This document shows, one piece after another, positions 7,901 through 55,000 of a DNA stretch of 64,000 nucleotides. Both the position numbers and the translations under genes were made by a program. Position 1 is the stretch's first letter. Every line of letters begins with the position of its first letter. The stretch covers positions 21,824,001-21,888,000 of the forward strand of contig CM060732.1 of NCBI GenBank assembly GCA_030704615.1. Reading direction: 5' to 3'. Source of the DNA: Takakia lepidozioides. Its lineage: Eukaryota; Plantae; Bryophyta. Under the pieces are notes generated by a model that had not been told where the DNA came from, searched no databases, and saw nothing but the letters and a program-made list of their open reading frames with translations.

Positions 7901-8459
7901 ACGATTCCCTGGTGCTGGCTATAGAGGATACAGTATTGCTAGTAGAGTTCCAACAGCCAACTGAATGGTTCCCAGCAAGAATTCCACAGACTGTCGTACC
8001 GCTGCTGAACGGTGCAGCTACGGTGGACATGGATCCCAGCCCCTGAGTGGTTGACACAAGGAATGCGAAAAAAATGGTACATATTGACAAGAAAGAGAAG
8101 GGTGTGGCGACCGTGGGACTACATTGACCCACCAGCAAGGGCGCGGCCGATCGTTGCCTCCCGTGGTCGCTGTGAGTTGCTCCTCTCCACCATTTCCCTG
8201 TACAGTCCCCTCTATTCCCCGCGAAAGACTCGTCGAAACACGATGCTTCGCTGGCCGGAAGGATGATGCCTCCTTTCCCTCTTTCTAGTCCACCTAAACC
8301 AGGCCTGATCTCCGTGTAGCCCAGAAACAGTTGCTCGATTATCCTTGCAAAAGCGGACCACTTCCCAGCAGCTGAAATGGGCCCGCAATTTATAAAGCTA
8401 CCAGTGTTCTCTCCACTGTATCCAAGTCGGTGGCAGACATGATTGAAGGCCCTTCCCAT
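5000..8459 (-). CDS. CRINKLY4-related receptor-like kinase; exons 8459-6523 and 6035-5000, about 990 aa from the first ATG
   Basis: GLGSMSTVA mature N-terminus, crinkly/RCC1-like repeats (CWG, HVCG), TNFR-like Cys region, transmembrane helix and a complete kinase (GAGSFG, VAIKR, HRDIKSSN, DFG, GTLGYMDPEY). The GT-AG intron 6522-6036 joins the two ORFs in frame (AG|G). Confidence 0.9.
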
Positions 8460-27639: not shown

Positions 27640-28760
27640 GATTTTCTTTTTATTTATGTATACTAGTTTAAAATCTTTTCAGATGTATTAGTTGTACACT
27701 TTTTAACATTTCTATCCATCCCTCAATTATATCCTACAATCCTTTAGTTCAGATTTTTCACTTTATCTTGGATATTTCTAGAATAATCCTGTTTTATGAT
27801 TTATCCATACTAGATTAAATCTTTTTTGATCCATTAGTTGTAATAGTGTAAAATTTCTTTAGTCCCTCGGTTATTTACAACATGCTCAGTTCAGATTTTC
27901 TAGTGTCTCATCGATATTTTCACAAATAATCCTGCTGTGATACATGCATACTAGTTAGAATTATTTTTTCTCTATTAGTTGCATACTGTAAAATTTCTCT
28001 CGGTCCCTCAGTTATTTCCTACAATTCTTCAATCCAGATTTTTAAGTCTCCCTCAAATACTTCCACAAATAATCCTGCTGTGATATATATGCATACTAAT
28101 TTAAAATATTTTCTGATGATCTAGCAGTTGTATATTGTAAAATTTCTCTCGGTCCCTCAATTATTTCCCACAATTCTTCAATCTAGATTTTCAAGTGTCT
28201 CTTAAATACTTCCACGAACGAATAATCATGTTGTGATTATGCGTACTAGATTAAAGTCTTTTCTGATCCATAAGTTGTGTTTTTTCAATCCCTAGGTTGT
28301 TTCCTCAAATTCTTCAGCTCAGATTTTCTAGTGTCCCTTAGTATATCCACATTTAATAATCTTGCTATGATTTGTGCAGGCTAGTTTAAAATCTATTCGG
28401 TTACATTACTTGTATAATTTAAAATATCTCTCGGTCCCTCAGTTATTTCTTACAATACTTCAACTCAAATGTTCAAGTGTCCCTTGAATATTTCTCACAA
28501 ATTAATCTTGCTGTAATTTAGATTAAAATATTTGTGATCCATTAGTTATATACTTTAAGATTTCTCTGGATCCCTCAGTTATTTATCACAATCCTTCCAT
28601 TCAGATTTATCAGCATTTTCCTAACTCTCACAATCCTTTAATTATATCAGGTTAAATTTATTTTATTGCCTCGGTTACATTCAGAACCTCAACTATTATA
28701 ATTTCTTTCGGTTCCTCAGTAATATCTCGCAATTTGTTCAATTATACTTATCTTAATTTA
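27640..28760. repeat. AT-rich tandem array, about 142-bp unit, about 8 copies
   Basis: A (g/a)tccct-like core recurs at 27718, 27862, 28003, 28152, 28288, 28434, 28570 and 28711. Confidence 0.85.
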
Positions 28761-29239: not shown

Positions 29240-32211
29240 CATTGTACAGATAAATGTATCAATGATCGCGTCGATGCAAACATTAGAATTCGTAAAATGG
29301 GTAATGCGTTTTTAAATGCACAACAAATGTCTGCTCAATTAGCAGCATATATTGTGTTATCCATACCACTTTATCATGCATCTCGAAGTTTTAAATTTAT
29401 AAATACATCGTCACCACAAGAACGTGCATTTGTGTTGAAATCAAATAAAGAATTACAACAACTTTCTCCAAAATCCACAGATATTTAAATGTCTATCTGC
29501 TATTGACAAATATATTGATCGACCTAAGGCATTGAAGGACGTAAGCCTAAGTGAATTTGTTGCCGAATATACGACAGAAAAAACTGATTTAAATCCTCGT
29601 CAAAAATCTTGCATTATTAGATCCGTACACTACAATCAACATTGAGATGCCGACAATTATTATAGAGAACAACTTTTGCTTTTTCATCCTTTTCTTGGAA
29701 ATGAAGAATCACAAAAACAAAACTATGCATCTTGGCATGATGCATATATTGCTCATGAGCCATCCATTGTATCAATACGTAAAAAGTTTATATATACGTT
29801 CTCAAAAAATAATAACAATACTATAACTGATTGGAATAATTTAGAATCAAAAGCTCATGAATTGGCACAAATAAATAACTCTAGCATATGGATGGATACT
29901 TTTATGATGGTCGACGATGATTATGTTCCTAAATCATTAACTGATTGTACTGGAGTAGAGTCTTATGATATAAACACTGAATTCCATTTCAAACCACAAA
30001 TTAGAACATCGACGATACCTGAAATGGATGTTTGTAGCACACCTGACAATATGATTCTTTCCACAGTTTTTTTTGCTGAATTGCGCAAACTTAATTTTGA
30101 GCAAAGAGCTATTTTTGATGACTGTATGTATAGAAAACGTTTGTATCCTGACAAACCACTACATTTATTTATGACTGGTGGAGTAGGAACGGGAAAAATT
30201 TTTACCTTATTACTTATAATTCAAGGAATATTAATAAACATCCACAAGCTGATCCGCTAAAAAAAAAAACGATTTTGATGGCATATACAGGAAAAGCAGC
30301 TTTTAATATTGATGGCACAACCATACACTTTGGGCTTAGCATCCCTCTCAATTGCAAAGAATTGCCTTCACTTAGTTCAGAGCGATTAGATACACTAATA
30401 AAATGTTTTGACCAATTACAACTTTTGGTATTAGCTGAAATTTCACTAATAGGAAATAGAATACTTATATTTGCAGATTTACGATTAAGATCAATCAAAC
30501 GAGTTCATAGTCATTTTTTTGGTAATCTAGATGTCCTTGTCACATGAGATTTTTATCAAGCACCACCAGTGAGAGATAGTTGGTTTCAAAAAAAAAAACT
30601 GTAGGCCCAGATGTTTTAGTCCCCAGTTTTTGGCAAGATTGTATTAAATGTTACAAATTGACACAAGTGATGCGTCAAACAGACCGTGAATTTATTGACA
30701 TATTGAATAGATTGCGAACAGCCTCAGCAACTCAACACGATATAGACACTATTAATCAACAATGTTGTCGGCCTCCCCCTAACGATCCCGCATTCCCTCA
30801 TTTATATTATACAAACAAATCCATGCTCATGCATAATCAACTAGCTTTTGAGCGAACTAAAGGATCTGTATATATTTTTGAAGCCATCGATAAACATCAT
30901 GATACATGTCCTGCTTCTTTTAAGTTACTTGATAATGCATCTAATACTGCAGGTCTATATACAACTATTAAGGTTAAAAAAGAAATGTTAGTAGAGTTGT
31001 GTGCTGGAAATTATGCGACACATGACGGTCTTGTGAATGGAGCAGATGGAATATTCAAACATGCTACAATGTTAGTAGAATCTACTCATTTGATATGGAT
31101 ACAATTTTTCAATGTTAAATCTGGTATTGCTACACGTGCTAAAAACTCACATTTATATGATTCTACGATAGATCCTTTATGGACTCCTATTCAACCTATT
31201 TCAAAAGAGATTCAAATTGGGCCAAATACATCTCATATAATTACTACAACACAATTTCCGATTCAATTGGCTGCTGCTCGAACCATCCACCGTTCACAAG
31301 GCTTAACAATGGATTATTTGGCATTTGATCCTACCGGTGTTAATAAACAGGGATTAAGCTATACTGCTTTGTCTCGTATTCGAAGAAAAGAAAATTTGTA
31401 TCTTTTAGCAAACTTGCAACTACAAAATTTCCGCACTGATAATGGCGTTGCTGAGGAAATGAAACGATTACGTACTATTGCACGTTGGGAACTTTTAATT
31501 CCTGTTTTAAAAACTATCAACAATCACATGTAATTGTACAATCTTTGAACACGAGATCATTGTCATTATACAAAGACGATATTTTTGAAGATTATAATTT
31601 ACAAACATCCCATATTTTATGTTTGAATGAAACTCATTTCAGTCCGGAAAATTCAAACAGCAATTTATTTGCCGATCATTCAAAATATTCGTATGTGGCT
31701 GTACATGCTAGTCAAGGTACAATGATATTGTACGATAAAAGTACGTCGTAAACATCCCATGAAACATTTTCACGTAATGGTGCCGAATATATAACTGCAT
31801 TATTTAATAAAAATACGCGAAGAGCTATAAACATCGTCACAATATATAAACCTCCGTCTCTTTCATTGATTATATTTTTATCCCATCTTGGGATTATTCT
31901 TAATAATATCCCACATTGTTGTCCTACAATAATTATAGGAGATTTTAATGTGCATATGTTAGAGAAAAATCCTTCAACCAATCAACTAAAACAATTTATG
32001 AATAAATTTTCAAATGAAACTTCAATTTTCCGAGGCTACTACAATCTACGGTTCACATTTGGATCACATTTGGACAAATGCCCAAAATCAACAATGCATG
32101 TCCGGTGTTACAGAAGCCTATTGGAGTGATCACAAACCTATATTTATGGCTTTCAAACTACCTAATCACGTGTCTCAATATTGTCACATCTCACCTATTC
32201 TAAATGTTTAA
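29240..32211 (+). mobile_element. Decayed Helitron-like Rep(C-term)-PIF1 helicase-APE endonuclease gene (Helentron type)
   Basis: KMGNAFLNAQQMSAQLAAY; PIF1 motifs TGGVGTGK, AYTGKAAFNIDGTTIH, QVMRQ, QFPIQLAAARTIHRSQGLT, YTALSR; then EN motifs SLNTRSL, LCLNETH, IYKPP, IIGDFN, LDHIW, SDHKPI. Several stops and frameshifts. Confidence 0.85.
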
Positions 32212-33649: not shown

Positions 33650-34339
33650 AAAGATGTATGCATGATTTGTGCGGAGCAGGGGTAGAATGTGGGTTCAGAT
33701 TCATTCAAGAAGGTTGGATTTTAAGCTCAAGATTAGCTATGGTTTCTTGTGCATCAATAGTTGGAAGAAACCTACATGGGTAGATGGTGAACTAGAAGCT
33801 GCAGCAACAGCGGCACAGTTGATAAAATCAGGCACTGTTAATGAAGGTACTTTTTTCAACACATTTCATCCTATTTTTTTCTCTTATTAGAACCGGCCCT
33901 AATTCCATGTTGAATTCTGCAATGGTGACTTTGACATGCTATTGCCAATGTGACAACATGAAAGTATCCAGATACAGGTAACAGAGACGAGGAGAGGCTG
34001 TGGAAAGAATACTTTTCTGATCCCAGTCAATGTTGGGACAACCAAGGCCAAAAGGTGAATGCCTGTTAGATCAGAGAGTAGCAAATGCAATTCAACATAG
34101 GAATTAGTGTGATAAGTTGAGTTGGGTGTTTCATAGAACAAATCTAGGCTGTCATTGTCAGCTGCTAGCAGCAAGGCAAAGATGAATGCATGATTTGTAT
34201 AGAGGCATGGATAGTTGAAGGAGCAGGGGGAAAGTGTGGGTACAGAATTATCGAAGAGGACCAAATTTCAAGCAGAAGAATACCTATGATTCCCTGTGGA
34301 TCAATAGCTACAAGAAGCCTACATGGTAGATGGTCAACT
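33650..34339 (+). pseudogene. Two further diverged copies of the PPR 5' module; the second is the target of the Gypsy insertion
   Basis: gtggatcaatagctacaagaagcctaca..gatggtcaact resembles 21850-21960 and 33690-33836, and continues after 46804 (aactaaaggcagcagctgcagcggcacagttgataaaatcaggcac). Confidence 0.65.
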
Positions 34340-34665
34340 TGTCAAGTTATTTTACCACTAGTGTGAAACTAGCTAGGAAATAGCTATCTTTTACATATTG
34401 ACATTTGGGATTGGCCCAAGTGTCAATCCAGGGGTCAAGGCAGATTTAGGCCCTGGAGTGGTTATCTTCACGGCAAGCGCGGGAGACTCATCTTTCTCGA
34501 GTTGAGCCTCACCGCGCCTAGCTATGGCGCCGTAGTGTGGATTCCCCATGGCGTGGGGTGCACTTGGCTTGACTTGTATTTGAGTGATGAGGTTATATAT
34601 GCATGAGTTTATGCTTCAGCTTTGTGAGCTCGCATGAGCTTGTGCTTGTATTCTTCTTCTTTATC
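34340..34665 (+). repeat. Terminal repeat A1 (326 bp)
   Basis: Matches 46288-46613 with two substitutions seen by eye. Rich in short hairpins, TATA-like ttatatat near 34593. Confidence 0.95.
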
Positions 34666-36199
34666 ACTCGAGAAAGGTGAGCTCGTATCTATGAGTGCTA
34701 GATACGAGTTAGTTGTAGCACTTGTGGTTTTTGCTTGAGAATGAGAGAAACCAAGTTGTTATGCAAGGAGCACCGTGGAGCTCTTAGTTGTTAGAAGCGG
34801 AGGCGATGTGGGTTACGAGGTGGTAGACCTTGGCATTCGATCTTCAGCTTCAGAGATGAAAGCACCATGCTGCAGGTAATTCCAGAGCACCTTGATGGTT
34901 TCAGATTGTGTACATGCATGAGCAAGCACGATTGGGAAGAGGACCAGTCAAGAGCAGATTATAGTGGATTTGGTGGCAAAGCTGAAAACTGGACTTGGGA
35001 ATGCGAGCTTTCATTATGTGAAGGATTGCAAGACCAAGCGAAAGGGCTGATTTTGCTTGGGGCAAATCAGTGCACTTTGTGGAGTATGGTGAGATTGGGT
35101 TTCAATCTCGAGCTTCAGCATTGAGAGGGCTCTTGTCATGGCAAGAGCAGGGCTGGATCAGGAGCTAAGAGGTGCGGCAAGGCCATGGAATGTGCACCTA
35201 GGGTTTCAGAGCTTGGAAGAAGAGTTCTTGCACCACAAGAGAAGTGTCTTGTGGTTGGAAATGTAAGCCTTAGGGTTTCAGGAGCTTGGCAAAGGCTATG
35301 GAGTGCTTAGTCTTGTCATAGAGAGCATCAAGGAGCCAAGGAGCCAAGATAGGGGGCTGATATCTCTTGTGTGAAGAGGTTGCATGTGTGGAGCATGTAT
35401 TCAGCTCATTGAAGCTTCCATCTTCAAGCTTGGAGGGCAAGCAAGGAAGAGGGAAGGGCTGACTTCCCTTATGTGAGGGCAATGTATGTGTGGAGCATGC
35501 TATCAGCCTGGTGAAGGCTTGCACTTTTAGGTGTGGGAGTGCAAGAAAGGAAGGAAGGGGCTGGTTTCCCTGTAGGGCATGTAGAGCATGCTTTCAGCCT
35601 GCTGAAGCTTGTATTATCAGGTTTGTGGGTGCAAGAAATGAAGCAAAGGAGCTGATTCTCTTATGGTGAGAGTGGGGCATGTGTGGAGCATGCCTTCAGC
35701 CCATTGAGGCTCTTGTTTTCAAGCCTTAGAGAGCTAGAACGGAAGGTCTAGGGCTGGTTTCCACTTGGAGTGAAAGAACAGCACTTGTAGGGCCTATGTG
35801 AGTTGGGGTTTCAACTTCAAGCTTGAAGGGAGCGCAACTCTTGAAGCAACAGGTGTAGAGGGCTGGAATAGGCTCTAAGACAGATGCTATGGCCAATGAG
35901 GGGAGTGCTTGAATGAGTGCTCACAAGGGCTGGGAACCAGCATGGCTTGGTTGTTTGCCATTGAGTTTAGTGGCGTGTTTGGGAGGCTAAGTGAGAAAGA
36001 AGGCTTGGTTTGTGGCAACCACCTCATGGCTTAGGGCTACTATGGTGGTGTGTGGGAGCCGAAAGAGCAAGGATACCTTGCTAATTTCCTCACAGCCACC
36101 ATAGCTCGGTGGAAAGAAGCCTAGAGTCTAAGAGACACAAACCCTAGCTTGGCGTGGCTAAACCCCTTGGAGAAATGGCTAAACTGCCAGAGCGGCCAT

Positions 36200-37790
36200 G
36201 TGTGGGGCTGTGACAGGCTGTGGCAAGCTGTGACAGGCTATGCCCAGTGGCCTGTGGGGCTGTGACGGGCTGTGACAGGCTGTGGCAAGCTGTGACAGGC
36301 TGTGATGGGCTGTGATGGGCTGTGACAGGCTGTGCCCTGTGCCCTGTGGGGCTGTGACGGGCTGTGTCAGGCTGTGACAGGCTGTGCCCAGTGGCCTTTG
36401 GGGCTGTGACGGGCTGTGACAGGCCGTGCCTGAGGCCTTTGGGGCTGTGACGGGCTGTGAGGGGCTGTGGACAGGCTGTGCCTGTGCCCTGTGGGGCTGT
36501 GACGGGCTGTGTCAGGCTGTGTGGCGAGCTGTGACGGGCTGTGACGGGCTGTGACAGGCTGTGCCCTGTGCCTGTGGGGCTGTGGCAGCTGTGACCGGCT
36601 GTGATGGGCTGTGATGGGCTGTGACAGGTGTGCCCTGTGCCCTGTGGTGCTGTGACGGGCTGTGTCAGGCTGTGACAGGCTGTGCCCAGTGGCCTTTGGG
36701 GCTGTGACGGGCTGTGCGGGGCTGTGACAGGCTGTGCCCTGAGGCCTATGGGGCTGTGACGGGCTGTGACAGGCTGTGCCCAGGCCTTTGGGGCTGTGGG
36801 GGCTGTGAGGGCTGTGAGGGGCTGTGACAGGCCGTGCCTGAGGCCTTTGGCTGTGACGGGCTGTGAGGGGCTGTGACAGGCCGTGCCCATGGCCTTTGGG
36901 CTGTGACGGGCTGTGAGGGGCTGTGACAGGCCGTGCCTGAGGCCTTTGAGGCTGTGAGGGCTGTGAGGGGCTGTGACAGGCCGTGCCCTAGGCCTTTGAG
37001 GCTGTGACGGGCTGTGAGGGCTGTGACGGGCCGTGGCAAGCTGTGAGGCTGGGATGGGCCGGGATGGGCTGTGACAGGCTGTGACAGGCTGTGATGGCTT
37101 TGGGTGCTGTGTGCCGGGCTGTGAGGGGCTTGGGGCTGTGACAGGCCGTGCCCATGCCTTGGGGCTGTGAGGGGCTGTGACAGGCCGTGCCTGAGGCCTT
37201 TGAGGCTGTGATGGTGTGACGGGCTGTGAGGGGCTGTGACAGGCCGTGCCCATGGCCTTTGGGCTGTGACGGGCTGTGAGGGGCTGTGACAGGCCGTGCC
37301 TGAGGCCTTTGAGGCTGGAGGGGCTGTGCTGTGGGGGCTGTGTGACAGGCCGTGCCCTAGGCTTGAGGCTGTGACTGGGCTGTGTGGTGGGCTGTGGCAA
37401 GCTGTGACGGCTGTGATGGGCTGTGCTGTGATGGGCTGTGACAGGCTGTGCCCTGTGCCTTGTGGGCTGTGACGGGCTGTGTGAGGGGCTGTGTGACAGG
37501 CCGTGCCCATGGCCTTTGGGGCTGTGACGGGCTGTGAGGGGCTGTGACAGGCCGTGCCCATGGCCTTTGGGCTGTGTGAGGGGCTGTGAGGGTGTGTGGG
37601 TGTGAGGGCTGAGCTGCCTGTGAGGGGCTGTGACAGGCCTGCGTGCTGAGGCTTGAGGCTGTTGAGGCTGTGTGGAGTGGGCTGTGAGGGCTGGGGCTGT
37701 GACAGGCCGTGCCTGAGGCCTTTGAGGCTGTGACGGCTGTGAGGGGCTGCGACAGGCTGTGCCCAGTGGCCTGTGGGACTGTGACGGCCT
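36200..37790. repeat. About 1.6-kb array of ~10-bp GGCTGTGAC(A/G) units in the element's 5' leader
   Basis: Continuous ggctgtgac/gggctgtgag variants with higher-order caggccgtgcc..ggccttt units. Confidence 0.95.
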
Positions 37791-38530
37791 GACCAGTGAG
37801 CTGTGTGGGCCTGTGCTGGTCTGTGGTGGCCCGTGTTGACCTGTGGACGGCTTGTGCTGACTCGTGGAGGCACTGGTGGACTGCCTAAGGACTGGCATGT
37901 GGTCTGGAAGGCCGAATTTTGAAGCTCGTGGAGGGCGGTTTGAGGAGTATCTTCATGATATTCCCATGGTCATGCAAGTGAGGATAGAGAGGAGAGGCAG
38001 AGTGTTGGGATGAGAGCATGCTGGGGTTAGGCATTGCTTTAGCTTCTCTTCCTCGTAGTTTCCACCCTCTCATTAGGCCAAGACCTTTCCGTAGGTGGAG
38101 GCAAGAGTCAGTCCGGGTTTGGGCTGGGGTGTCCTTGCAGGAGCAACACCGTGGAGTTGTTTTTGGTGTGGGGGAGTTGTCGTTCGGATTTCTTGTGTTT
38201 GGATCCCCTCCATACCTGCATGCTTGACTGTGCGCCATGCTAGTTTTGTGTGGGCGCTTGTTTTTATAGGTGATTGGTCCGGATTTGATCACCGGCCAGT
38301 CCTAGAGCATGCTGTCGATGGTGAGGCTGGGGTGATGACCAGCCAGACCATCATTGTTTCTCCTGTGGTGAGGTTGGAGGTGATGACCAGCCAACCATAG
38401 GAGTGCTTGCGGTGGATGCAGGTACAGGTGTAGGCTATGTTAGGAACTTAGTATTCCAAACCATAAGCCGCAACAGGTTCTCTACCCGGTTACCTTGTGG
38501 AGAGGGGGTTAGGGACATGTTCATGACCGG

Positions 38531-40444
38531 TTGAGTGTCAACACGGAGGTGCCACTAGTTGCTGGGGACAGTGCCGGTTCGAGCACTAGCGATACTAGTG
38601 GGTACACGAGACGAGGTGTGCGGTTTAGGCCACCTTCACCTCCTGTGTCTTCCACGGAAGGTTCTGATTCGGATTGTGAATCAGGAGGGCTCATACCGGC
38701 GGTGCAAGTTGTTTCTTTGCCATTGTTGTGGGACACAATGGAGGAGATGTATGGAGCTACCAAGGGGCCACGAAGGTACTCTGGGGCGGTGGGCACCATT
38801 GAGTTGGATGATTTTATCCAAGAGTTTGATAGTTGGTGTGATTTGCAGCAAATGCGCAATCCACAACTATTTACGCCGTTCATGGCATGGAAAGGGCTGT
38901 TTCAGCACCTTGAGGGGCCGCCTATGGATGATTACCATGAGTTCAGGCGGGGGCATGAGGTTGAGATCGAGGAGTGGAGGATGTACTGGTCACCCGACTA
39001 TGTCTCCATCACTAGGGGCACTAGAGCCACGAGGGCAGTGGCTACACCTGCCGCTGCACTGGCAGCTTCAGCAAGTAGCAGTGGGACTGGTGGTACAGTA
39101 GCTACGACATCCACCCAAGCCACTACCGCACCAGCACTAGCACCCGTGCCTGCATTCAACCCTGTTGTGGAGTTCTTCGAAGAGTTGAGAGGGAACTACC
39201 AAGGGGTGAGGACAGAGAAGTTGCGGAGCTTGCAAGAGTTCCAACGGAAGCCGACCGAGAGCTTGAGGGAGGCTTTCACTCGCATGAGGCGCTTGATAAA
39301 TGTAACCCAAGGGGTTACGGAAGCTCAGGCAGTCCAATTCTGGTATGGGATATTGGACAAGGAGCTGAGGAGAAGGGTGCGGGATGCAACTCTCCTACAA
39401 GCGGCCCAACCCACCTTAGCAAATGTGTTTTTGCTGGCAGAGCGGATAGAGCTCAACATGGTGGAGGAACGAGTGGTCATGGTGGGATTTGCTAAGGAGA
39501 CACCACGGGGTAGTGGTGCTCCTAGCCAACCACTACCTCAACGTGCTCAAGGCAACAAGGGGGCTCAGGTGAAGCTCAGGGAAGGGCAGAGAGGACCTCA
39601 GATGCAGGGGTCTCTCCCTTCATTTGCTGGCCAACAACGGGCGGATGTGGTGTGCTGGACATGTGGAGGACCCCATGTCAAGAAGGATTGTCCAGAGGGA
39701 GGCAAAGGGCCGGCACATGCATAGCCTGCACAGTTACAGTGTGGGCATTGTGGCAAACACGGGCATGGAGAGGCTCAGTGTTATGGTTTGCATCCTGAGT
39801 TGCGCCCAGGCCAGTTCCAAGGGAACAATGGTGGCCGGGGGCGAGGTGGAGCAGCCCAGAGAGGACGAGGTGGCCAGCCACGAGGTGTAGGCCAAGGGCA
39901 AGCTCAACGTGGCCAAGGACGTGGAGGTCAGGGTGTTGACCAAGGCATGGCCAACCGGCTTCAGCAGCTAGAGCAGAGGCTCGCTGCCATGGCTACAGCT
40001 CAGGTGGTACCGGCTCTAAGGCCGGATGGTCCACCTCCTGCTCCTGAGGGAGGAGATATGGGAGGCATGGGATTCATGTGTGGAGCAGCACTACCACTAG
40101 TGCAGGTGGAGTCTGCTGCAGCCGTGACTCGAGGAGCAGCACGAGTTCCTGAGCCACGAGGTGCAGAGGTGGAGTTGGATCCACAGCGTGGGGAGGCAAG
40201 CCGTCAGGCTAGGCTTCCTCAGTCATTCACATTGGCGGAGACAGTGTCGACGCCATCCATGGCACCTAGTTCTCGCCCGACTGTTACCGAGGCGGAGGTC
40301 ACTATGCCATTGGGGAGAGCTACACGGGTAGCACCACTACCTAGTGTTGCCAAGGCTACGGCAGCTAGTGTGCTGCTAGGAGCGGCCACATCTGTGTGCC
40401 AGGCTCCATTGTTCTCGGCTACCATGATTGCGACGCCGGGGTAA
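38531..40444 (+). CDS. gag: Gag (capsid plus two zinc knuckles), interrupted by one in-frame TAG at 39722
   Basis: FQRKPTESLREAFTRM capsid motif, CWTCGGPHVKKDC, and after the stop CGHCGKHGHGEAQC. ORFs 38531 and 39788 are in the same frame. Confidence 0.85.
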
Positions 40445-42702
40445 GACCAGCTGAGGTGTTCAGGCTGGCAGCTACACTCTGTGAGAGTGGGGAGGTTACT
40501 TCATCTTCTGCGGAGATAGTGGGAGGTGTAGTGCCGGAGGGATCCTCGGATTTGAGGGTCAAGACTGCCACGGCGGCGCCATGGCAAGCTGCAGCTGCCA
40601 GGTTGATGGAGCTGCCAGCTAGGCCAGCCATTGAGCGCGCCATGGTGACACCTGGAGTTGTCATGTTAGACAACCAGGATGGCATTTTCTGTTTGAGTGG
40701 ACCGGCAGGCAAGAGGTACCGGCCACTGCGAGTCTTGTTGGACTCGGGAGCTCAGCCACTGATGCTGGGCAGAGCTGCTATTGCAGGCTTGGGCCTCACG
40801 GAGGCGGATATGGAGCCTTGTCCTTTCCAGATACAGACGTCTCTGGGAGGATCGGAGCAGGCTCGGGGCATGACACGGCATGAGTTGGCTATCAGACTAC
40901 GGCCGGATCACCCTACAGATGGCTCAGTGATGCGAGCCAAGGCCATTGTGACAGACGCAGTCTCATACGATGTCCTGGTTGGTGGGGCAGTGTTGTACCC
41001 CATGGGCTTCACCCTGGATTTTTGGGAGGAGTCAGCTTCCTATAGGCCTGCATGGCAGTCAGGGGAGGGCCGGCGTGTGCAGCTCCCTGTGACGTTCATA
41101 GGAGGAGTTGCGGTTGCCCAGCGAGGCAAGATGCCGACACTAGCAGCATTCACAGCGGCAGTGAGTTGGCCTAGAGAGTTGCTTGAGGGCAATGCTCATT
41201 CAGAGGATGTACCACCTCCGGGAGAGCAGGATGACATGTATGGTATGGCGGAGTTGCCTACCATGGTTGCTCAGACTCCATTGTGGGGCACGAGCAAGGA
41301 TTTGCAGCGGGATGCTGATCGACGGGTGCAACAAGCCTGGGTGGAGGCTTTTGTACCGTCAGGAGAGGAGGAGAGTGTGGGGATTGCACCAGGACCACCT
41401 CAATTGTCTCCATTGGACACCACACCTATTGTGTGGCAGTCTCCGGATGAAGGCATTTGTCTTCTGGACTTGTTTGGCGGGATCAGCACCGGATTGGCTG
41501 CTGTGTTACAGGCAGGTGTACGAGTTCGGCGTTACCTGTATGTGGAGAGGGATGAGACTGCACGACGCGTTTCACTTCGCCATGTTGCTCAGTTGGTGCA
41601 GCGGTACCCTGAGTTGTTGTCGGTGTCTGCAATTCGTGGATATCAGCAGGCCTTGCCAGCAGACATTTCGTTGCTGGGGGCGCAGGATTTGGAGCGGGTT
41701 GGCTCCATTGATCTGGTAGTGGCAGGTTGGCCCTGCCAAGGGCATTCATCAGCCGGGCATGGCAATGGATTGCGAGACTCGAGGTCGGGTCTGTTTTGGG
41801 AGATGGTGCGGGTTTTGCGCCACTTGCAGCTTCATCAAGCTGTATCTCCAGCATACATCTTGGAGAATGTGCCACTGATGGGCGATTCTCGGGCCAGGGT
41901 GATGGCCAGTGTGCATCAAGTCCGGTCGTGGCTTGGGTCAGCAGTGTTGCTAGATGCAGCTACAGTGGGGTCACGGGCTCATCGTCCACGGCTATGGTGG
42001 ACTAACATGATGCCACCCGCACTGCTCAAGCGTGCATTTGATGGGGTGCAGCGGCCAGCACATCTCACAGTGGATAACATTCTGGACACAGGGAGGCAGT
42101 CTCAACGTGTGAGACACGATGACCGTTCGCCTTTGGCAGTGGTCAACAAGGTGGGTCAACCACGAGCAGCATTACCTACACTGCTCAGCTTCCCAGGATC
42201 GCATGCTTTCCGGGATAGTGGACCTGGCCTCCTGTGGGATGCTCAGTTGCAGCAGTTAGTGGAGCCTAATGCTGACGAGCGTGAGCGGGCAATGGGTTTT
42301 ACCACTGGTACCACGGCGGTGTCGTCTCTTTCTGAGGCATCACGTCGTCAAGTGTTGGGGCAAGCAATGGATCTCAATTGCTTGACCTGGATTATCAGCT
42401 TGGCTCTAGCTGAGCAACGCAGAGTGCGGAATACACTTCCCTCAATGGTCTCTCTGCCTACCGAGACGGTACAGGCAGTGAGTGGGGGCGAGCATATGAG
42501 GACCACGGGGTGCATGCATCCATGGCACACGTGGGAGGTGCTCGAGGTTCAGAGGGAGTTGGCAGCCAAGGCGGCTGTGATGGATGAGGTTGGGGATTCT
42601 TCTCGAGTTGAGGAGGTCCTCAAGGATGAGATGATGGGGCAGGATGATGCCTTGTCATTGACTGAGCAGGTAGGGAGTACTGCTCAAGAGGTTGCAGCAT
42701 AG
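40396..42702 (+). CDS. Aspartic protease plus DNMT3-like C5 cytosine methyltransferase (DNMT about 41455-42410)
   Basis: VLLDSGA protease site at 40741. DNMT motifs I (LDLFGGISTG), II (YVERD), IV (GWPCQ), VI (ILENV), VIII (AHRPRLWWTN), IX (ERERAMGF) and X (RRQVLGQAM) in canonical order. Confidence 0.92.
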   Translation: MPGSIVLGYHDCDAGVRPAEVFRLAATLCESGEVTSSSAEIVGGVVPEGSSDLRVKTATAAPWQAAAARLMELPARPAIERAMVTPGVVMLDNQDGIFCLSGPAGKRYRPLRVLLDSGAQPLMLGRAAIAGLGLTEADMEPCPFQIQTSLGGSEQARGMTRHELAIRLRPDHPTDGSVMRAKAIVTDAVSYDVLVGGAVLYPMGFTLDFWEESASYRPAWQSGEGRRVQLPVTFIGGVAVAQRGKMPTLAAFTAAVSWPRELLEGNAHSEDVPPPGEQDDMYGMAELPTMVAQTPLWGTSKDLQRDADRRVQQAWVEAFVPSGEEESVGIAPGPPQLSPLDTTPIVWQSPDEGICLLDLFGGISTGLAAVLQAGVRVRRYLYVERDETARRVSLRHVAQLVQRYPELLSVSAIRGYQQALPADISLLGAQDLERVGSIDLVVAGWPCQGHSSAGHGNGLRDSRSGLFWEMVRVLRHLQLHQAVSPAYILENVPLMGDSRARVMASVHQVRSWLGSAVLLDAATVGSRAHRPRLWWTNMMPPALLKRAFDGVQRPAHLTVDNILDTGRQSQRVRHDDRSPLAVVNKVGQPRAALPTLLSFPGSHAFRDSGPGLLWDAQLQQLVEPNADERERAMGFTTGTTAVSSLSEASRRQVLGQAMDLNCLTWIISLALAEQRRVRNTLPSMVSLPTETVQAVSGGEHMRTTGCMHPWHTWEVLEVQRELAAKAAVMDEVGDSSRVEEVLKDEMMGQDDALSLTEQVGSTAQEVAA

Positions 42703-45700
42703 CAACCACGGGACGCGTCCTCTACCTCTAAGCCCACTGGACTTAAGGTTGTAGTTACGGAGGACAATTGGGAGCCTGACATTGGACCCATTGTCACCGG
42801 AGGAGAGAGACGACGTATACGGCGGTTCCTGAGGGCTTACAGGAATTGCTTTGCCTTCAGTTTGAAGGACTTGGGAGCACTGAAGGGTCAAGAGATCCGT
42901 ATTGAGTTGGCCACTGACACGCCAATCTTTCGGAGACCCTATAGATACAGTGACATGGAGAGGTCTTTGATTCAGATGAGGACTCAAGATCTCTGGGAGG
43001 CAGGTTTGGTGGAGCTCTCTGGTGGAGAGTATGCTTCAGCCACAGTGATGCCAGCCAAGAAGGATGTCTATGGCAATTGGACGGAGAGACGTATGTGCGG
43101 TGATTACCGGCCTGTAAATCGTCAGACCAAGTCCGATAAGTATGCCATGCCAACACCAGAGGAGATCTTTGATGCCATCGGGCATGCTAAGGCCTTTAGC
43201 ACTTTGGATTTACGATCCGGATATCACCAGTTGCCAATCAAGGAGGCGGACAAGCAGAAGACGGCATTCTGGGGGATCAATGAGCACGGCAAGGATTGCC
43301 TATATCAGTGGCGGTTCTTACCATTTGGGCTTAAGAATGCTCCTGCAGAGTTTCAGAGAGTCATGGATAGGATTCTAGCAGGGGTGGACTTTGCTCGGTG
43401 CTACATAGATGACATCATCATCTTTAGTGTTACGATGGAGGAGCATGAGAGACACCTTCAGGTGGTATTGGAGCGCTTGAGAGCGCACGGATTGAAGTTG
43501 CATCCGGGGAAGTGCAAGTTTTTCCACAACCAGATTGAGTATCTGGGTCACATGATATATCCTGGAGGATTGGGGGTACAGCAGACTAAGGTAGAGGCCA
43601 TTGCACAAATTCCACGCCCCACGGATGTGAGCCGAGTTCGAGCTTTCATGGGGTTGGCAAACTATTATAGACGGTTTGTCAAGGGATTTAGTACCATTGC
43701 AAAGGCTCTAACCAAGCTGACCAAGGTGGACCAGGAGTGGCAGTGGGAAGATGAGCAGGAACGAGCTTTTCAAGAGCTCAAGGCGAGGTTGACCTCGGCG
43801 CCTATCTTGAGACGACCTATCAGGGGGCGTCCCTTTCAGCTGCATACGGATTGGAGCATGCTGGGGCTTGGAGCGGTGCTCACACAGGTGGATGATGAGG
43901 GAAGAGAGTTCGTAGTGGCTTACGCTAGCCGCTCGAACAACGCTGCAGAGGCTAAGTACAGCTCATATGAGGGAGAGTGCTTAGCTGCAGTGTGGGCCGT
44001 GGCACACTTCAGGTGCTATCTATACGGCAATCTTTTCACCCTTGTCACGGATCACCAGCCACTCAAGTGGTTGATGGAGTCAGACAAGCTTACAGGGAAG
44101 CTTGCACGGTGGGCACTTATACTCCAGGAGTATGACTTTCAGGTTGTGCATCGACCGGGTTTGGTCAATCGGGATGCGGATGGATTGAGTCGCAATCCAT
44201 GCATGAGCCAGCAGGATGACACTGGAGCTCGGTGGCATGGTGAGACGGACGAGGAGATGGTGCCGGGATGGCACGCATCTGCATTTTTGTGTATCTTGGC
44301 ATCGGGAGGTCAGATTGGACCTACAACAGGGATGACTGTAGACGGAGTGTCTGAGGACCCTGAGGCTAGTGATGAGCTAGGTGGTGCCAGAGATATACAT
44401 GAGGATTCGGCTGTGTTGGACTACCTCCGCACGGGAGACACGGCAGCCATTGTGACTGCCAGGGAGAGGGATCGGATCCTGCAACGAGCCAAGAGGTTCA
44501 AGTGGGAGGGGATACACCTACTTCGAGTGTGGGAGGATGGTCGGGTGAGGATTGTGCCTCACCCCACACAGCGTGCACGGTTAGTGCGGCATGCCCATGA
44601 GGAGTTGGGGCATTTTGGAGTGCGACGCACTCACAGTTTACTGCAGGGGCAGTATTGGTGGCGTGGTATGCATACAGAGGTGCAACAGTTTGTGGCTAGG
44701 TGCATGGTGTGTGACAGGGTGCGTGCTTCATTCAACGCCCCTACACCACAGTTGCATCCTTTACCTATCATGGGATTGGGCTACAGGTGGAGTCTTGACT
44801 TCGCAGGACCGTTGCCACTGACTATGCGCCACCACAGATATGTGTTGGTGATGGTGGAGCACTTCTCCAAGTGGATTGAGTTGGTTCCATTGCCTGACAA
44901 GGCTAGTGAGGGGGCTGCGTATGCATTCTTGGATCGTGTGCTTAGCCGATTTGGTGCTCCAGCTGAGGTACTCACGGACCAAGGGAGAGAGTTCTTGGGG
45001 GAGTTTCAGGCTTTGTGTGATAAAGCCTTGATAGACCACCGCACCACTTCTCGGGATCATCCTGAGGCCGATGGCTTAGCAGAGAGAGTTGTTCAGACGG
45101 TGAAGAGGGGTTTGCGCAAGTATGGCTTGCAGAAGGGACACCTAGGAGATTGGGATCTTCAGGTTCCTTGGTTAGCCATGGGCTACAGGTTCAGCAAACA
45201 AGCATCACTTGCCTCCTTCTCACCATATTTCCTTCTCTTTGGCCGAGAGCCGGATTTGCCTGCAGCCATTCGTAGGGACACTGCTCAAGTCCTTAACCTT
45301 GACGATCCGGACGTGTGGGTACGTGCATGTGATCAGCGTGCAGAGTTGTTCAAGAAAGTCATGCCCATGGCTTTTGAGAACCTTGCCATTGCACAGCACC
45401 GTGATACGTTGAGGTATGCCACTATACGTGGTGGAGGATATCGTCCTGGGGTTCGGAGGTTTAGCCCTGGTGACTATGTTTATTTGCAGCAGACTGCTCC
45501 TACGACTCTGGATGTTACTGCAGGGCGTGTTATTCTGAGGGTTCGAGAGGTGTTGCCCTCAGGGGTCCTGATCTTGGAGGGTCGGGATGGCATGACTTGG
45601 AAGGACCATGTGCGTAATTGTGCGCCATGTCACCTTCCCAATGTCGATGGCAGAGTTGACCCAAACTTGGCAGTGGTACCTGCAGGTTTGAGGTGCATGC

Positions 45701-45837
45701 TCTGTGGGTCTGCCAAAGGGGCAGCCACCATGCTGGTGTGTGATCGATGCTCAAGGGGTTGGCATATGGGATGCTTGACACCACCTCTTGAGAAGGTTCC
45801 TGACGGAGATTGGTTGTGTCCACACTGCTTGGGATAG
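42703..45837 (+). CDS. pol: RT-RNase H-integrase with a C-terminal PHD finger (45694-45828), same frame as the PR-DNMT ORF
   Basis: [33 protein letters not shown] (SLDF, LTDQG, LAERV), and the C4HC3 finger CMLC..CDRC..H..C..WLCPHC. Confidence 0.95.
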   Translation, partial: QPRDASSTSKPTGLKVVVTEDNWEPDIGPIVTGGERRRIRRFLRAYRNCFAFSLKDLGALKGQEIRIELATDTPIFRRPYRYSDMERSLIQMRTQDLWEAGLVELSGGEYASATVMPAKKDVYGNWTERRMCGDYRPVNRQTKSDKYAMPTPEEIFDAIGHAKAFSTLDLRSGYHQLPIKEADKQKTAFWGINEHGKDCLYQWRFLPFGLKNAPAEFQRVMDRILAGVDFARCYIDDIIIFSVTMEEHERHLQVVLERLRAHGLKLHPGKCKFFHNQIEYLGHMIYPGGLGVQQTKVEAIAQIPRPTDVSRVRAFMGLANYYRRFVKGFSTIAKALTKLTKVDQEWQWEDEQERAFQELKARLTSAPILRRPIRGRPFQLHTDWSMLGLGAVLTQVDDEGREFVVAYASRSNNAAEAKYSSYEGECLAAVWAVAHFRCYLYGNLFTLVTDHQPLKWLMESDKLTGKLARWALILQEYDFQVVHRPGLVNRDADGLSRNPCMSQQDDTGARWHGETDEEMVPGWHASAFLCILASGGQIGPTTGMTVDGVSEDPEASDELGGARDIHEDSAVLDYLRTGDTAAIVTARERDRILQRAKRFKWEGIHLLRVWEDGRVRIVPHPTQRARLVRHAHEELGHFGVRRTHSLLQGQYWWRGMHTEVQQFVARCMVCDRVRASFNAPTPQLHPLPIMGLGYRWSLDFAGPLPLTMRHHRYVLVMVEHFSKWIELVPLPDKASEGAAYAFLDRVLSRFGAPAEVLTDQGREFLGEFQALCDKALIDHRTTSRDHPEADGLAERVVQTVKRGLRKYGLQKGHLGDWDLQVPWLAMGYRFSKQASLASFSPYFLLFGREPDLPAAIRRDTAQVLNLDDPDVWVRACDQRAELFKKVMPMAFENLAIAQHRDTLRYATIRGGGYRPGVRRFSPGDYVYLQQTAPTTLDVTAGRVILRVREVLPSGVLILEGRDGMTWKDHVRNCAPCHLPNVDGRVDPNLAVVPAGLRCMLCGSAKGAATMLVCDRCSRGWHMGCLTPPLEKVPDGDWLCPHCLG

Positions 45838-46095
45838 TGGCAGTGGACATGACTGGAGGCAGCTAACAAGACATGGGAGGCCAAGCTCATAGGAGTCAAT
45901 ACATGAGATCCCAAGCTCAAGTTCACAGGTTGCAAGACGGCGACTAACGATGGGGCAACTCTTGCACCCGGCCTCTTGATCTATCGAGTTTGAGTGTAGT
46001 AGGGATAGTGGTGGAGGACTTAGTGAGGCTATGGTCACTATCACATCTTGTGGCTACCTGGACTTAGAGGGACCTAAGCACCAGCTAGGGGGGCG

Positions 46096-46804
46096 ATTGT
46101 GTGGACTAGTGACTGCCATAGTGGGCAGCGTAGTGGCAGCCTAGTGACTGACTAGTTGTAGCCTAGTGGTTGGACTAGTGGCTGGACTAGTGGTAGACTA
46201 GTGGTATACTAGTGTGTGGTGTGCACATGTGTTGTGTGGTTTTGGACAGCGATGTAGTTGTGTAGCGATATGTATGCGCACGACAGCTGTCAAGTTATTT
46301 TACCACTAGTGTGAAACTAGCTAGGAAATAGCTAGCTTTTACATATTGACATTTGGGATTGGCCCAAGTGTCAATCCAGGGGTCAAGGCAGATTTAGGCC
46401 CTGGAGTGGTTATCTTCACGGCAAGCGCGGGAGGCTCATCTTTCTCGAGTTGAGCCTCACCGCGCCTAGCTATGGCGCCGTAGTGTGGATTCCCCATGGC
46501 GTGGGGTGCACTTGGCTTGACTTGTATTTGAGTGATGAGGTTATATATGCATGAGTTTATGCTTCAGCTTTGTGAGCTCGCATGAGCTTGTGCTTGTATT
46601 CTTCTTCTTTATCTATTGTGTGGACTAGTGACTGCCATAGTGGGCAGCGTAGTGGCAGCCTAGTGACTGACTAGTTGTAGCCTAGTGGTTGGACTAGTGG
46701 CTGGACTAGTGGTAGACTAGTGGTATACTAGTGTGTGGTGTGCACATGTGTTGTGTGGTTTTGGACAGCGATGTAGTTGTGTAGCGATATGTATGCGCAC
46801 GACA
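46096..46804 (+). repeat. Right terminus: B1 (46096-46285) - gc - A2 (46288-46613) - t - B2 (46615-46804)
   Basis: B1 and B2 (190 bp each, with ACTAGT-containing repeats) look identical. The B1/A2 junction is the palindrome GACAGCTGTC. Confidence 0.95.
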
Positions 46805-47780
46805 AACTAAAGGCAGCAGCTGCAGCGGCACAGTTGATAAAATCAGGCACCTCAACCATGATCACAGCTTCCGAAAGAGTATCAAGAGAGGGACTCCACA
46901 ATGCTTTGTGAGGCAGGTAGACCAATGAGGCATATAGCAGATTCAGATACGTATGTCTGTCTCTTGTACACTCACATTATCCAAAGTGGATTCACGCCAA
47001 GTGTTTTTCTCCTCAACATTCTTGTCAAGATGTATGTTAAGTGCGGGGGGGGGGCATCATGGATGCTCACCAAGTGTTCAACGGAATGCCTCAACGATCT
47101 TTAATCACGTGGAATATAATGTTGGCAGGATTTACCAAATGTGCAAGCTTGGCAGCTCTGGAAAAGGGTGCAAAGAGGTCCATGATGACATTGTCAGAGC
47201 TGGAATTGTACCCAATGTCATTATGAACTTTGCCCTGGTGGACATGTATGCCAAATGTGGGAGCATTGAGGATACGAAAGGAGTGTTCAACAATATGGTT
47301 GAACGAGATGTGGTGTTCCACGCGATGCTGGTAGGGTATGCACAGCAGGGATCCGGTATGAAGGCTTTGGAGACGTATGAGCAAATGATGTAGGAACGGG
47401 TGAAGCCCAACCCCATCACATTTTGCGCGTTTGCAATTGTGTGCAAGCCTGGCAGCCTTGGAAAATGGCAAAGAGGTGCATGACAACATCGTCAGAGCTG
47501 GAATTGTACCAGATGTGATTCTCAACAATGCCCTGGTGGACATGTATGCCAAATGTGGGAGCATCGAGGATGCAAGGGAGCATTCGACCATATGGTTGAA
47601 CGAGATGTGGTGTTCCACGTGATGTTGGCAGGGTATGCACAGTAGGGATGCGGTATGAAGGCTTTGGAGACGTATGAGCAAATGATGTGCGAAGGGGTGA
47701 AGCCCAACCACATCACGTTTGTGTGTGTTTGTAGTGTGTGTGCAAGGTAGCCTTGGAAAAGGGGAAAGAGGTGCATGGTT
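46805..47780 (+). pseudogene. PLS-class PPR pseudogene (continuation of the interrupted copy)
   Basis: KEVHDDIVRAGIVPNV..ALVDMYAKCGSIED occurs twice, with stops and frameshifts. Confidence 0.85.
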
Positions 47781-52064: not shown

Positions 52065-55000
52065 TGTCGCGCACCTCACTTCGGTAAGCTCCCCTTCAAG
52101 TCATAGTTACTCGCTTTGATGCGCGCGCCTGACTCCCAACCTGGCCGCCCAGGCCAACTTGGAGCTTCGGCTGCTCACCGGGACATAACGGTCCCCCTTC
52201 GCTGCCCTCTAAACCCTCCACCTATTTGGGACTAGGAGAATTCCCTTTGGTAGATGGCAGTCCGGAACAGCTCCCCACTCTTTGGTCGCTTTCCGGCTCG
52301 CTCGCTTACTCACTAGTTTTTGGTCACCAACGGGCTTGCACCGTTCTCGGGTTACTACTCCCTATATATACTTCTGTAGCTGTCCGCGGGGGTTTCACAA
52401 CCCATGCCATTTTATGGCGAACCACCACGAAAACCCTCGACTCCCGGTGATGAGTCGCGGTGAGTCTTGGCCCGCTCACCACGGCCCCTATGGACCGTGA
52501 TGAGTCCCAAGACTCCCCACGACTCCCACCACGAGGTCTCCGCCCCATGGTGAGTCCTATGCCACCCCCACTAAGTCCCGCTAAGCTACCACCACCCCTT
52601 GTGGAGCCACCCCCACCGCAACCCGGTGTGCGGGGCTCCACCTAGTGAGCGCCTCCGCCTCCTTGAGTGCCTTGGGCACTCAAGGGTGCTTCAGCCCCCC
52701 ATACCTATCCTATCGCTGCCGCTGCCCCCACCACAGGGCAGCCCCTCATGTGTCCCGACCCCCTGCCCTCAAGGCAAAGGGCCGCGACACACACCCCTAC
52801 CAACAGGGAGTCGATGTCCTCATCGACTTGTCCATTTTGTAGAAACGAACATCCAAGTTGTGGCGTCCCACATCAAGGAGTTTGTTTCCGTACCATGGCG
52901 TCCCATGGCAAAGAACCAAACCCCACACTTGACTCTACTCTCCACTAGCTAGTTCGGCCGACTTCCTCCAAGTCCCGGCCAAGGGTGGAGCCTCTCCAGC
53001 TCCTCCCAGTGCACTCTTCTTGGCCTACTTCAAGGCCAAGGAACGATCCTCCCCGAGGATCGAATCGCCTTACTGCAACAACATTGCTTGCGACCGCTCA
53101 TGATGCCGCTTTTGGCATCACCTTGAGCAAGGGTTCCCTGGAACCCTCTTTGACTAGGAAGATACCTTGAACCAACCGTGCGCCCCAATCACTACAATTG
53201 GGTCCGCCTTGGAATGCTGGCCTGAGGTACGGGAACACGCCGAAGCCGCACTACGACTTCGTCCCGAGGCTACACGATTATAGTACGTGAACGGAAGCAC
53301 GTAGCTTCCGCGTTAGCCCGCACTACAAGGCAACCCCCTCGGTAGCGCAGTTATAGTACGCGCACGCGCCAGGTGCGCACTAGCACGTGAACTCCCAAGA
53401 AGGCGCAAGTTTCCTTGCCCCTTGGATGGGGGTCACCCGATTTCGGCACTACGCAAACACACGATTAACCCAATTTACCTCTCCCACTTTTATAAGCTAG
53501 CATGCATTCTACACACTAGCCAACCATACCATGCATCACATTCCAAACAAAATAGGACGCACAACATTTGGAACCATTTCATTTATAACAAATTTTGTAC
53601 AATACAAGTTTTTGTAATCGGATTCCTAAGCTAGCTAAGCCGGGCTAAGCATGCATTTCCTCCCCCACGCTCCAAGGTTGATGTCCCCATCAACGCTTCT
53701 TCCGCTTTTGAGGTCGCCCTTCGAAAGCTGCAACCGCCTCGGATGCGTTTCCCATTTCTGAGGCACGCACCCAAGATGCCTCCACATGATGATAGCCCTT
53801 CCATTTGACGAGATACTCCGTTTCTCGGTTCTTGAACCTCCTCGACTTAAGTATTGCCTCCACCTCGTACTCAGGTTCATTTTCATGATCCAACAGCATA
53901 GGTGGCGGACGCAACACTTGATGCCGATTCGGACGTGCTTCATCTTTGAAGTAAGGCTTCAAAAGGGAGACATGGAATACTGGGTGCACCTTGCTGTTTG
54001 CCGGCAGCTCCAATTCATACACATCCTCATTCATAACCTTCCGAATGCGAAAGGGACCCGCATACGGAGGTACGAACTTCGGACTCACTTCCGGAGGTAG
54101 TCGGAAATTCTTGATGTTCAACCAGACCTCTGTGCCTGCCTCAAACTTCACTTCCCTCCGCTTCCGATTCGCCTGCCTTTCATACCGTTTCCTAGCTTTG
54201 GCAATGTTGTACTTTGCGAGCTTCAACAAACGCTCGCGTTCTTCCAGTACCGCCGCTACTGCCGGTTCCTCAACGTCCTGGGCGGCCCAACTTGTCGGCA
54301 CCAGAGGTGCTTTTCCATAGACCAATACAAAAGGGGAAACTCCCGTTGCGGAGTGTTCTGTGTTATTATAACAGAACTCTGCCGCGTCTAAGTGTTCCAC
54401 CCAGTCTGTTTGGTCTGCCGACACGTAATTCCGCAAGATTGCTTCACTACGGAATTCACTCTTTCTGTTTGGCCGTCGGTCGTAGGTCGGAAGGCGGTGC
54501 TCATCTTCAGCCTCGTCCCCATCTTCTTCCAAAGTGTCCTCCAAAATTTACTCGTAAACTTTGGATCGCGGTCCGAGACAATATCCTTCGGGACTCCATG
54601 ATGCTTTAAGACGTGGCGAAGTAAAGTCGCCCTGTCTCCTGCGCCGTTGCGTCTCCTTGGTGGGGATGAAATGGCCCATTTTACTGAACCTACCACCACC
54701 ACCATGATTGCATCGAATCCTTTTGACAGCGGCATAGCAGTCATGAAATCCATCGAGACGCTTTCCCAAGTCCCCTCTGGAATCGGCAAGGGTTGTAACA
54801 GCCCCGCTTGCTTTTTGTACTCGCTCCGGTTTTGTTGGCATGTGGTGCATGTCTTGACATACTCCTCTGCCTCCTCCCTCAGTTTGGGCCAGAAATACTC
54901 TTTCTTCAAGAGTGCCGCAGTGCGCTTGGCTCCGCCGTGGCCCGCAAGCGGGCTATCATGGCATTCTCTCAAGAGGCTATCTCTGATCCCTCCCTTCGGC

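Follow-up and report, generated by a model that had tools for sequence, protein, structure and literature searches.

A DNMT3-like methyltransferase ahead of a conserved, likely leaky stop codon in a Gypsy retrotransposon of Takakia lepidozioides

The window analysed here, a stretch of 64,000 nucleotides of Takakia lepidozioides (GCA_030704615.1, contig CM060732.1, positions 21,824,001 to 21,888,000), contains a Gypsy retrotransposon that carries a DNMT3-like cytosine methyltransferase (DNMT) domain (Table 1). The element has the Gypsy order protease (PR), reverse transcriptase (RT), RNase H (RH) and integrase (INT), with an integrase of the DDE type. A sequence-only reading had placed the methyltransferase inside Pol. 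It does lie after the protease, before RT and in the RT frame, but an in-frame TAG (42700-42702) separates it from RT, the DNMT frame covering 40369-42702 and the frame of RT, RNase H, integrase and PHD finger covering 42703-45837. The domain thus closes a Gag-protease-DNMT frame, and the misplacement matters because the enzyme belongs to that frame, upstream of a stop that is likely leaky. We propose that the copy, itself defective, belongs to a Gypsy-DNMT3 element whose enzyme would be made and packaged at the capsid level via the likely leaky stop and would probably act on newly made DNA of the element, methylating it ahead of integration, a reading to which we give a probability of about 0.55.

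Translation of the domain gives 318 residues without a stop, and Pfam DNA_methylase matches it with E 1.3e-12, scoring 48 bits where the cut-off is 22. As the sequence-only reading had stated, all the methyltransferase motifs are present in non-permuted order: FGGIS (residues 7-11), PC (93-94), ENV (137-139), AHRxRxWWTN (175-184), ERERAMGF (275-282) and then RRQVLGQAM. The closest solved structures are DNMT3A and DNMT3B (DNMT3A E 2e-11 in a single-sequence search), and a 19-sequence profile of the domain found DNMT3A with E 7e-23, DRM with E 3e-12 and M.HhaI with E 2e-8. DRM aligned with the N-terminal profile positions 1-130 only, as expected for a permuted enzyme. The AlphaFold model, with a predicted local distance difference test score (pLDDT) of 92.5, was matched by Foldseek to DNMT3A across residues 1-318 (E 1e-18). 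Structure comparison of the model gave DNMT3A a Z of 28.9 (root-mean-square deviation 2.5, 268 aligned residues), bacterial enzymes scoring below it (M.MpeI-type 4dkj Z 25.1, M.HhaI 23.5). Judged by both sequence and model, the DNMT3-like domain is real, with a fold and motif order closest to DNMT3, in agreement with the identity first proposed for it.

This intronless domain, embedded in a polyprotein, is well conserved among elements. In 85 aligned element-borne domains the catalytic cysteine is found in 83 (the remaining two are gaps), the ENV glutamate in all 85 and the RxR arginines in 83 and 82, while the glycine that binds S-adenosylmethionine (SAM) is almost invariant. The target-recognition loop, considered as a guide to the methylation context, aligns ambiguously to DNMT3A. 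The ratio of nonsynonymous to synonymous substitution rates (dN/dS) was 0.09-0.18 for the domain in five unsaturated between-family pairs and 0.04-0.15 for RT in three such pairs; synonymous sites were saturated in four pairs with the window. These sequence comparisons support purifying selection on the element-borne DNMT between families, at values near those of RT.

We then compared the stop with its counterparts in the 37 loci that have DNMT followed by RT, namely the window and 36 of the 71 loci examined. A stop lies 20-27 codons upstream of RT in 32 of them, and it is followed by CARYY in 30 of these 32, the other two being one base off; the full CARYYA is found in eight (five of seven families). 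For comparison, the CARYY context follows 5 of 293 stops that arose by decay, and 12 of the window's 2,838 stop triplets. By DNA identity the 32 stop-bearing loci form seven families, of which five have CARYYA, the largest has CAACCC and one is decayed. Different codons follow the stop in different loci (CAA CCA, CAA CTA, CAG TTA, CAA TCA, CAA CCC), indicating that a nucleotide pattern is kept and not an amino acid. The DNMT-RT linker (306-429 nucleotides) is in frame in all seven families, with variable codons on either side of the stop, and in the window the first in-frame ATG past the stop is codon 85, inside RT. CAR YYA after UAG is the signal of tobacco mosaic virus (TMV), for which about 10% readthrough in plants, with UAA too, is reported (PMC2754532).

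A survey of 213 protein endings found 21 proteins with the order Gag, zinc knuckle, PR and DNMT and 15 with PR-DNMT without RT; the close relatives among these RT-less proteins end 60-150 residues past the DNMT domain. Four Marchantia proteins with DNMT and RT and a short or absent linker (P0006, P0009, P0012, P0016) look like predicted-intron artefacts and were counted neither way. A conserved RNA structure 3' of the stop was unsupported, with z-scores from -0.4 to -4.3 across loci and -0.8 in the window. From the nucleotide pattern, programmed readthrough at the DNMT/RT stop is likely, and the methyltransferase would therefore be made one-to-one with Gag and at roughly ten times the level of RT and integrase. 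Reportedly, CARYYA readthrough in other elements may have been described by Gao et al. in 2003 in a study of retrotransposon recoding.

The word intact in the sequence-only reading holds for the DNMT domain; the copy itself is defective, since gag is interrupted by a stop (39722-39724) and the frame breaks near 40440 (40437-40444). Marchantia homologues have a single frame where the window has these two lesions. In sequencing runs, the gag stop is absent from most other copies and many differ at the frame break. Runs X1 and X2, from one sample that may be the source of this DNA, covered every one of the 30 bins with 86,027 and 95,137 contig pieces, figures that are not copy numbers, and two further samples also cover all bins, so that the family appears abundant and diverse in the organism. 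Of 593 differences in these runs, the 40 listed do not include position 42700, which proves nothing on the invariance of the stop.

The repeats of the element are laid out as A-coding-B-A-B, likewise in L027 and L039/L041. A1 and A2 differ at 2 of 326 bases and B1 and B2 at none of 190, and this near identity indicates a young insertion. The earlier description of near-identical terminal repeats and recent activity therefore stands as to age, but the repeats are split and are not two long terminal repeats (LTRs). A host-repeat paralogue 500 bp upstream has a single AACT, which identifies AACT as a 4-bp target duplication; clean 4-bp duplications were found in five of six distinct insertions and were not seen in L039/L041. 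No tRNA primer site was found after A1, unlike in the neighbouring chromovirus. The element thus lacks the two complete LTRs and the tRNA primer-binding site of a canonical LTR retrotransposon. Its rve integrase and target duplications set it apart from tyrosine-recombinase elements (DIRS/PAT/Ngaro), and a PHD finger, not the chromodomain of chromoviruses, follows its integrase. The nearest solved PHDs to this finger are those of CHD4, KDM5B/A PHD1, PHF12 and ATXR5. No Pfam protease model matched the element's own protease stretch. Long minus-strand open reading frames at 36144-37969 in the leader are products of the tandem array.

Table 1. Features of the Gypsy-DNMT3 copy and its insertion site (window coordinates)
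Feature	Position	Strand	Remarks
Whole element, 12.5 kb	34340-46804	+	Starts TGTC, ends GACA; AACT on either flank
Left target-site duplication AACT, 4 bp	34336-34339	+	AACT single in uninterrupted flank paralogue, about 33750-33835
Repeat A1, left end	34340-34665	+	Starts TGTC
TATATA, possible promoter	34594, in A1	+	
Leader, 4 kb	34666-38737	+	102-bp array 35353-35701; GC-rich 10/52-bp array 36201-37791
gag: capsid-like region, two zinc knuckles	38738-40444	+	Retrotrans_gag E 0.0015, below cut-off; Marchantia proteins P0004/P0005 extend across both frames
Aspartic protease	40654-41013	+	DSG 40741-40749; protease region of homologues carries PF13650/PF13975
DNMT3-like C5 cytosine methyltransferase domain	41455-42408	+	Pfam, solved relatives, predicted fold, residue conservation
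DNMT catalytic residues	41734-41736; 41863-41871; 41983-41991	+	Catalytic Cys codon; ENV; RxR
Conserved in-frame stop TAG + CAA CCA (CARYYA)	42700-42708	+	Likely programmed readthrough signal
RT and RNase H	42778-44142	+	RVT_1 4.6e-33, RT_RNaseH 1.3e-35
DDE integrase with H2C2 zinc finger	44503-45312	+	rve 1.7e-13, Integrase_H2C2 2.3e-16
PHD finger, integrase C-terminus	45694-45828	+	Pfam PHD 1.8e-10
Polypurine tract AGGGGGGCGA	46087-46096	+	Also precedes B in related loci
Repeat B1	46096-46285	+	Identical to B2
Palindromic B/A junction GACAGCTGTC	46282-46291	.	Internal head-to-tail copy of the element's ends
Repeat A2	46288-46613	+	2 mismatches to A1 in 326 bp
Repeat B2, right end	46615-46804	+	Ends GACA
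Right target-site duplication AACT	46805-46808	+	

In the palindromic B/A junction, 2 bp separate CA from TG. Such a palindrome, with 0-2 mismatches and at a plausible place, was found in 12 of 28 loci searched, including loci of a distant RT-RH-DNMT-INT branch (L044, L051, L054, L061); several of the remaining loci end early, lack A2-B2 or have no visible palindrome. Foamy virus integrase cleaves palindromic LTR-LTR circle junctions (PMC1180852). The two systems share a conserved palindrome of two att ends and a DDE integrase, although the foamy virus junction arises in 2-LTR circles, whereas here it is encoded within the element. By this analogy, we infer that the integrase might cut the palindrome, each strand after CA, leaving two recessed-CA ends with 2-nucleotide overhangs, which is the kind of end that integrase works on. 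Five loci (L014, L016, L018, L019, L053) stop after the first B (A-coding-B), two of them with matching 4-bp target duplications; recombination of B with B would explain these copies, and so would an integrase acting at the internal junction.

To place the element among its relatives, we scored 7,995 candidates among longer proteins, of which 66 matched. The top matches, labelled only as hypothetical or unnamed, came from Calypogeia (75%), Marchantia (18 entries, up to 77%) and Sphagnum (2), and 259 cluster representatives scored E 1e-30 or better. The RT frame matched proteins from Calypogeia, Riccia, Klebsormidium, Closterium, Tetraselmis and Tetrabaena. In the DNMT tree (FastTree, 96 sequences, 317 columns), the window groups with Calypogeia, Marchantia and Sphagnum with support 1.0, and Klebsormidium P0341 lies deeper in the element clade. 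Together with the RT and integrase Pfam matches, this bryophyte clade upholds the initial assignment to a land-plant-type Gypsy. The window falls in the P0341 clade for RT (FastTree support 0.84-0.9) as well as for DNMT. In the tree of RT and RNase H, which has 148 sequences and lacks Marchantia, Riccia and Sphagnum because of a length filter, all stop-bearing loci lie in one clade (support 0.99), which also contains P0227, with DNMT and RT in one frame. The comparison set for the DNMT tree was one fish DNMT3 and ten phage enzymes, the search for plant host enzymes having returned none; the fish sequence falls with the element clade at a support of 0.36. Among viral contigs, single-sequence scans gave no match and a profile scan gave phage methyltransferases only, which served as outgroup. 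Element-borne DNMT domains are kept from chlorophytes to bryophytes.

A second large architecture, RT-RH-DNMT-INT-PHD, is found in L043-L063 and in 33 of the 213 proteins, in one RT clade (support 0.90), indicating that the domain moved within the polyprotein. Two retroelement proteins, P0061 and P0331, contain PF05869 (Dam-like adenine methylase), P0061 together with DNMT, and recall the dual elements of a preprint (10.64898/2026.05.21.726589).

The closest described system is KnitGypsy-Dnmt3 of Klebsormidium nitens, which has DIRS-like repeats and a DNMT in a Pol open reading frame with RT (PMC5890265), and the preprint cited above uses the term 'Gypsy-DNMT3 of streptophytes'. KnitGypsy-Dnmt3 shares with the window the Gypsy domain set, an intronless non-permuted DNMT3-like domain under purifying selection (Ka/Ks < 0.2) and the A-coding-B-A-B repeats. 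Klebsormidium P0341 likewise has the order PR-DNMT-RT-RH-INT, in one open frame unlike the window. The window differs from KnitGypsy-Dnmt3 in belonging to a land-plant clade and in the conserved stop with readthrough context that splits DNMT from RT; the text of PMC5890265, its figures not being covered, makes no mention of a PHD finger, a junction palindrome or target duplications. SymbioDIRS-Dnmt3, from the same source, also combines a retroelement DNMT3-like domain with A-coding-B-A-B ends, but it has a tyrosine recombinase and a dinoflagellate host, whereas the window element has a DDE integrase and a 4-bp target duplication. Compared with host DNMT3 (PpDNMT3a/b, PMC6453930), the catalytic domain is of the same non-permuted DNMT3 type but lacks DUF3444 and introns and is embedded in a polyprotein. 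As in TMV-type readthrough, murine leukaemia virus (MuLV), Tca2 and SIRE1, a single stop in frame, with CARYY after it, would set the ratio of upstream to downstream product (PMC2754532, PMC2194720).

The Gypsy-DNMT3 concept, the repeat layout and the idea of self-methylation are thus already published. The passages of later papers say 'streptophytes' and do not name land plants. Full-text searches and papers on Marchantia, hornworts, plant DNMT3 and plant LTR classification gave no description of land-plant Gypsy-DNMT3 members or of the readthrough site, although subscription papers, repeat databases, figures and preprint supplements could hold one. As to whether the family was already described, the kind is, and for its land-plant members no description was found. 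What appears new relative to the algal kind, on sequence evidence, is a land-plant Gypsy-DNMT3 with a conserved, likely leaky stop that would set the enzyme at the capsid level.

We propose the following course of events. The majority of ribosomes would produce Gag-PR-DNMT, and a minority would read on through RT, RNase H and integrase-PHD to give the full polyprotein; for comparison, a Gag-to-Pol ratio of about 20:1 is reported to be needed by retroelements (PMC2194720). Within the particle, which SAM would enter, the methyltransferase would be set free by the protease. A slow DNMT3-type enzyme would need a high copy number to cover a cDNA of about 12 kb. The methylated cDNA could then pass as host chromatin or arrive pre-silenced, and the PHD finger might direct the integrase to nucleosomes. 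Packaging and cDNA methylation were proposed by de Mendoza et al. 2018, and SymbioDIRS-Dnmt3 domains gave de novo CG methylation in yeast (PMC5890265). Self-methylation of cDNA in the particle seems the most economical reading of these sequences, and the dose argument strengthens it.

Several observations weigh against this proposal. Of the 32 stop-bearing loci about 24 come from one family, so that they do not count as independent, and this largest family has C instead of A at +6 (CAA CCC) and an ATG two codons past the stop, so that re-initiation is possible there. The stop is absent from five loci (two distant families) and from P0341; the wider group can therefore do without high-level expression. 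In the 33 proteins with DNMT between RNase H and integrase, the enzyme is at the Pol level. When the domain of the Klebsormidium Gypsy element was tried in yeast, no methylation resulted, an outcome that its authors called inconclusive (PMC5890265). Finally, the coding region has an observed/expected CG ratio (0.50-0.54) equal to that of the window as a whole (0.54) and of a host gene (0.52); the neighbouring chromovirus, which has no DNMT, shows a higher ratio (0.90), a single comparison, and relatives range over 0.27-0.76. A broader picture, which we hold as tentative and rather doubtful, is that of a land-plant Gypsy lineage without the LTR and tRNA-primer route, Marchantia included, that would rebuild its ends from the internal junction GACA-GC-TGTC, opened by integrase behind each CA into two 3'-processed ends as in a genuine circle-junction pathway, fully methylate its copies before insertion with as much DNMT as capsid protein in each particle, and insert under PHD guidance.

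The enzyme could also be made at the Gag level and have its targets in the nucleus and not in the particle, these being the insertion site, sister copies or host chromatin. Such action would account for a methyltransferase excess over RT and integrase that exceeds the need of one cDNA and for the absence of element-specific CG depletion against the host background, and in moss, heterochromatin is methylated de novo by DNMT3 (PMC6453930, PMC10952607). We consider it unlikely, however, since the released enzyme lacks a host-type companion domain or targeting module and, by established retroelement biology, a Gag-PR fusion predicts co-assembly into particles.

Another explanation could be that the domain is kept for binding or protecting DNA, such as cDNA ends or the junction palindrome, with methyl transfer secondary or absent. 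The near invariance of the cysteine, the glutamate, both arginines and the SAM-binding glycine in the 85 domains makes this improbable, even though the algal domain was inactive in yeast (PMC5890265) and the target-recognition loop has no clear alignment to DNMT3A.

We regard as equally improbable that the stop is bypassed by splicing or by re-initiation, which would still leave the enzyme at the Gag level. Ogre (Tat) elements resemble the window in having a GAG-PROT frame followed by an RT-RH-INT frame and a long leader with tandem arrays, and in them an intron of about 274 bp is spliced between GAG-PROT and RT (PMC6317226); this intron, the ordinary LTRs and the extra RNase H of Ogre were not seen in the window element. 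The TAG could act as a splice acceptor, but eight loci have TAA, so that the AG is lost, and a conserved upstream pyrimidine tract is absent. In some families an ATG lies 2-4 codons past the stop, which would suit re-initiation, while the window and L020/L060 have no early ATG. Against both routes, a single stop is all that interrupts the linker in the seven families, the reading frame being open and unchanged before and after it, and CARYY is conserved, so that they are weaker explanations than readthrough.

That the domain is a neutral passenger, as dN/dS of 0.35-0.72 and many stops within one decayed family might suggest, is hardly credible, given that RT of the same copies decays alike (0.49-0.69), that dN/dS is 0.09-0.18 between families and that the domain is retained from chlorophytes to bryophytes.

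Other features lie elsewhere in the window. The neighbouring chromovirus-type Gypsy (52065-58965, minus strand), an ordinary one, is broken, with gag, protease, RT, integrase and chromodomain, LTRs 93.6% alike and a canonical tRNA-Met primer site, and the start of another Ty3/Gypsy gag lies at the window end (63269-63838, plus strand). A receptor kinase with RCC1-like repeats, a TNFR-like region and a transmembrane stretch occupies 5000-8459 (minus strand) in two frames 460 bp apart, probably separated by one intron; we take it to be CRINKLY4-like, of land-plant range. Decayed PPR gene fragments were found at 21800-23220 and 46938-47780, the latter adjoining the insertion. The kinase, these fragments and the bryophyte origin of the closest relatives agree with a land-plant host. 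A helicase fragment at 30580-31533 (plus strand; weak Pfam helicase match, E 0.0056) is presumably of PIF1/Helitron look. The window also contains an AT-rich degenerate tandem array with units of about 140-150 bp (27650-28610) and an open frame of 392 codons (364-1542, minus strand) that includes three repeats of 47 residues and matched no Pfam model.

De Mendoza et al. 2018 left open what a retrotransposon gains from a silencing enzyme. Since such elements are present in the tractable Marchantia (18 proteins among the 66 matches) and at high copy in Takakia lepidozioides, this question becomes testable. The conserved, likely leaky stop would mean that selection fixed the enzyme dose at the Gag level in this clade, which is a clue to function, and for this arrangement of a DNMT followed by a leaky stop we found no earlier description. 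The elements also provide a case of a DDE integrase with split repeats and without a tRNA primer. In practice, bryophyte annotations list too many DNA methyltransferases because of such copies, and programs that look for LTRs miss them. If self-marking proves true, these retrotransposons would write their own epigenetic state.

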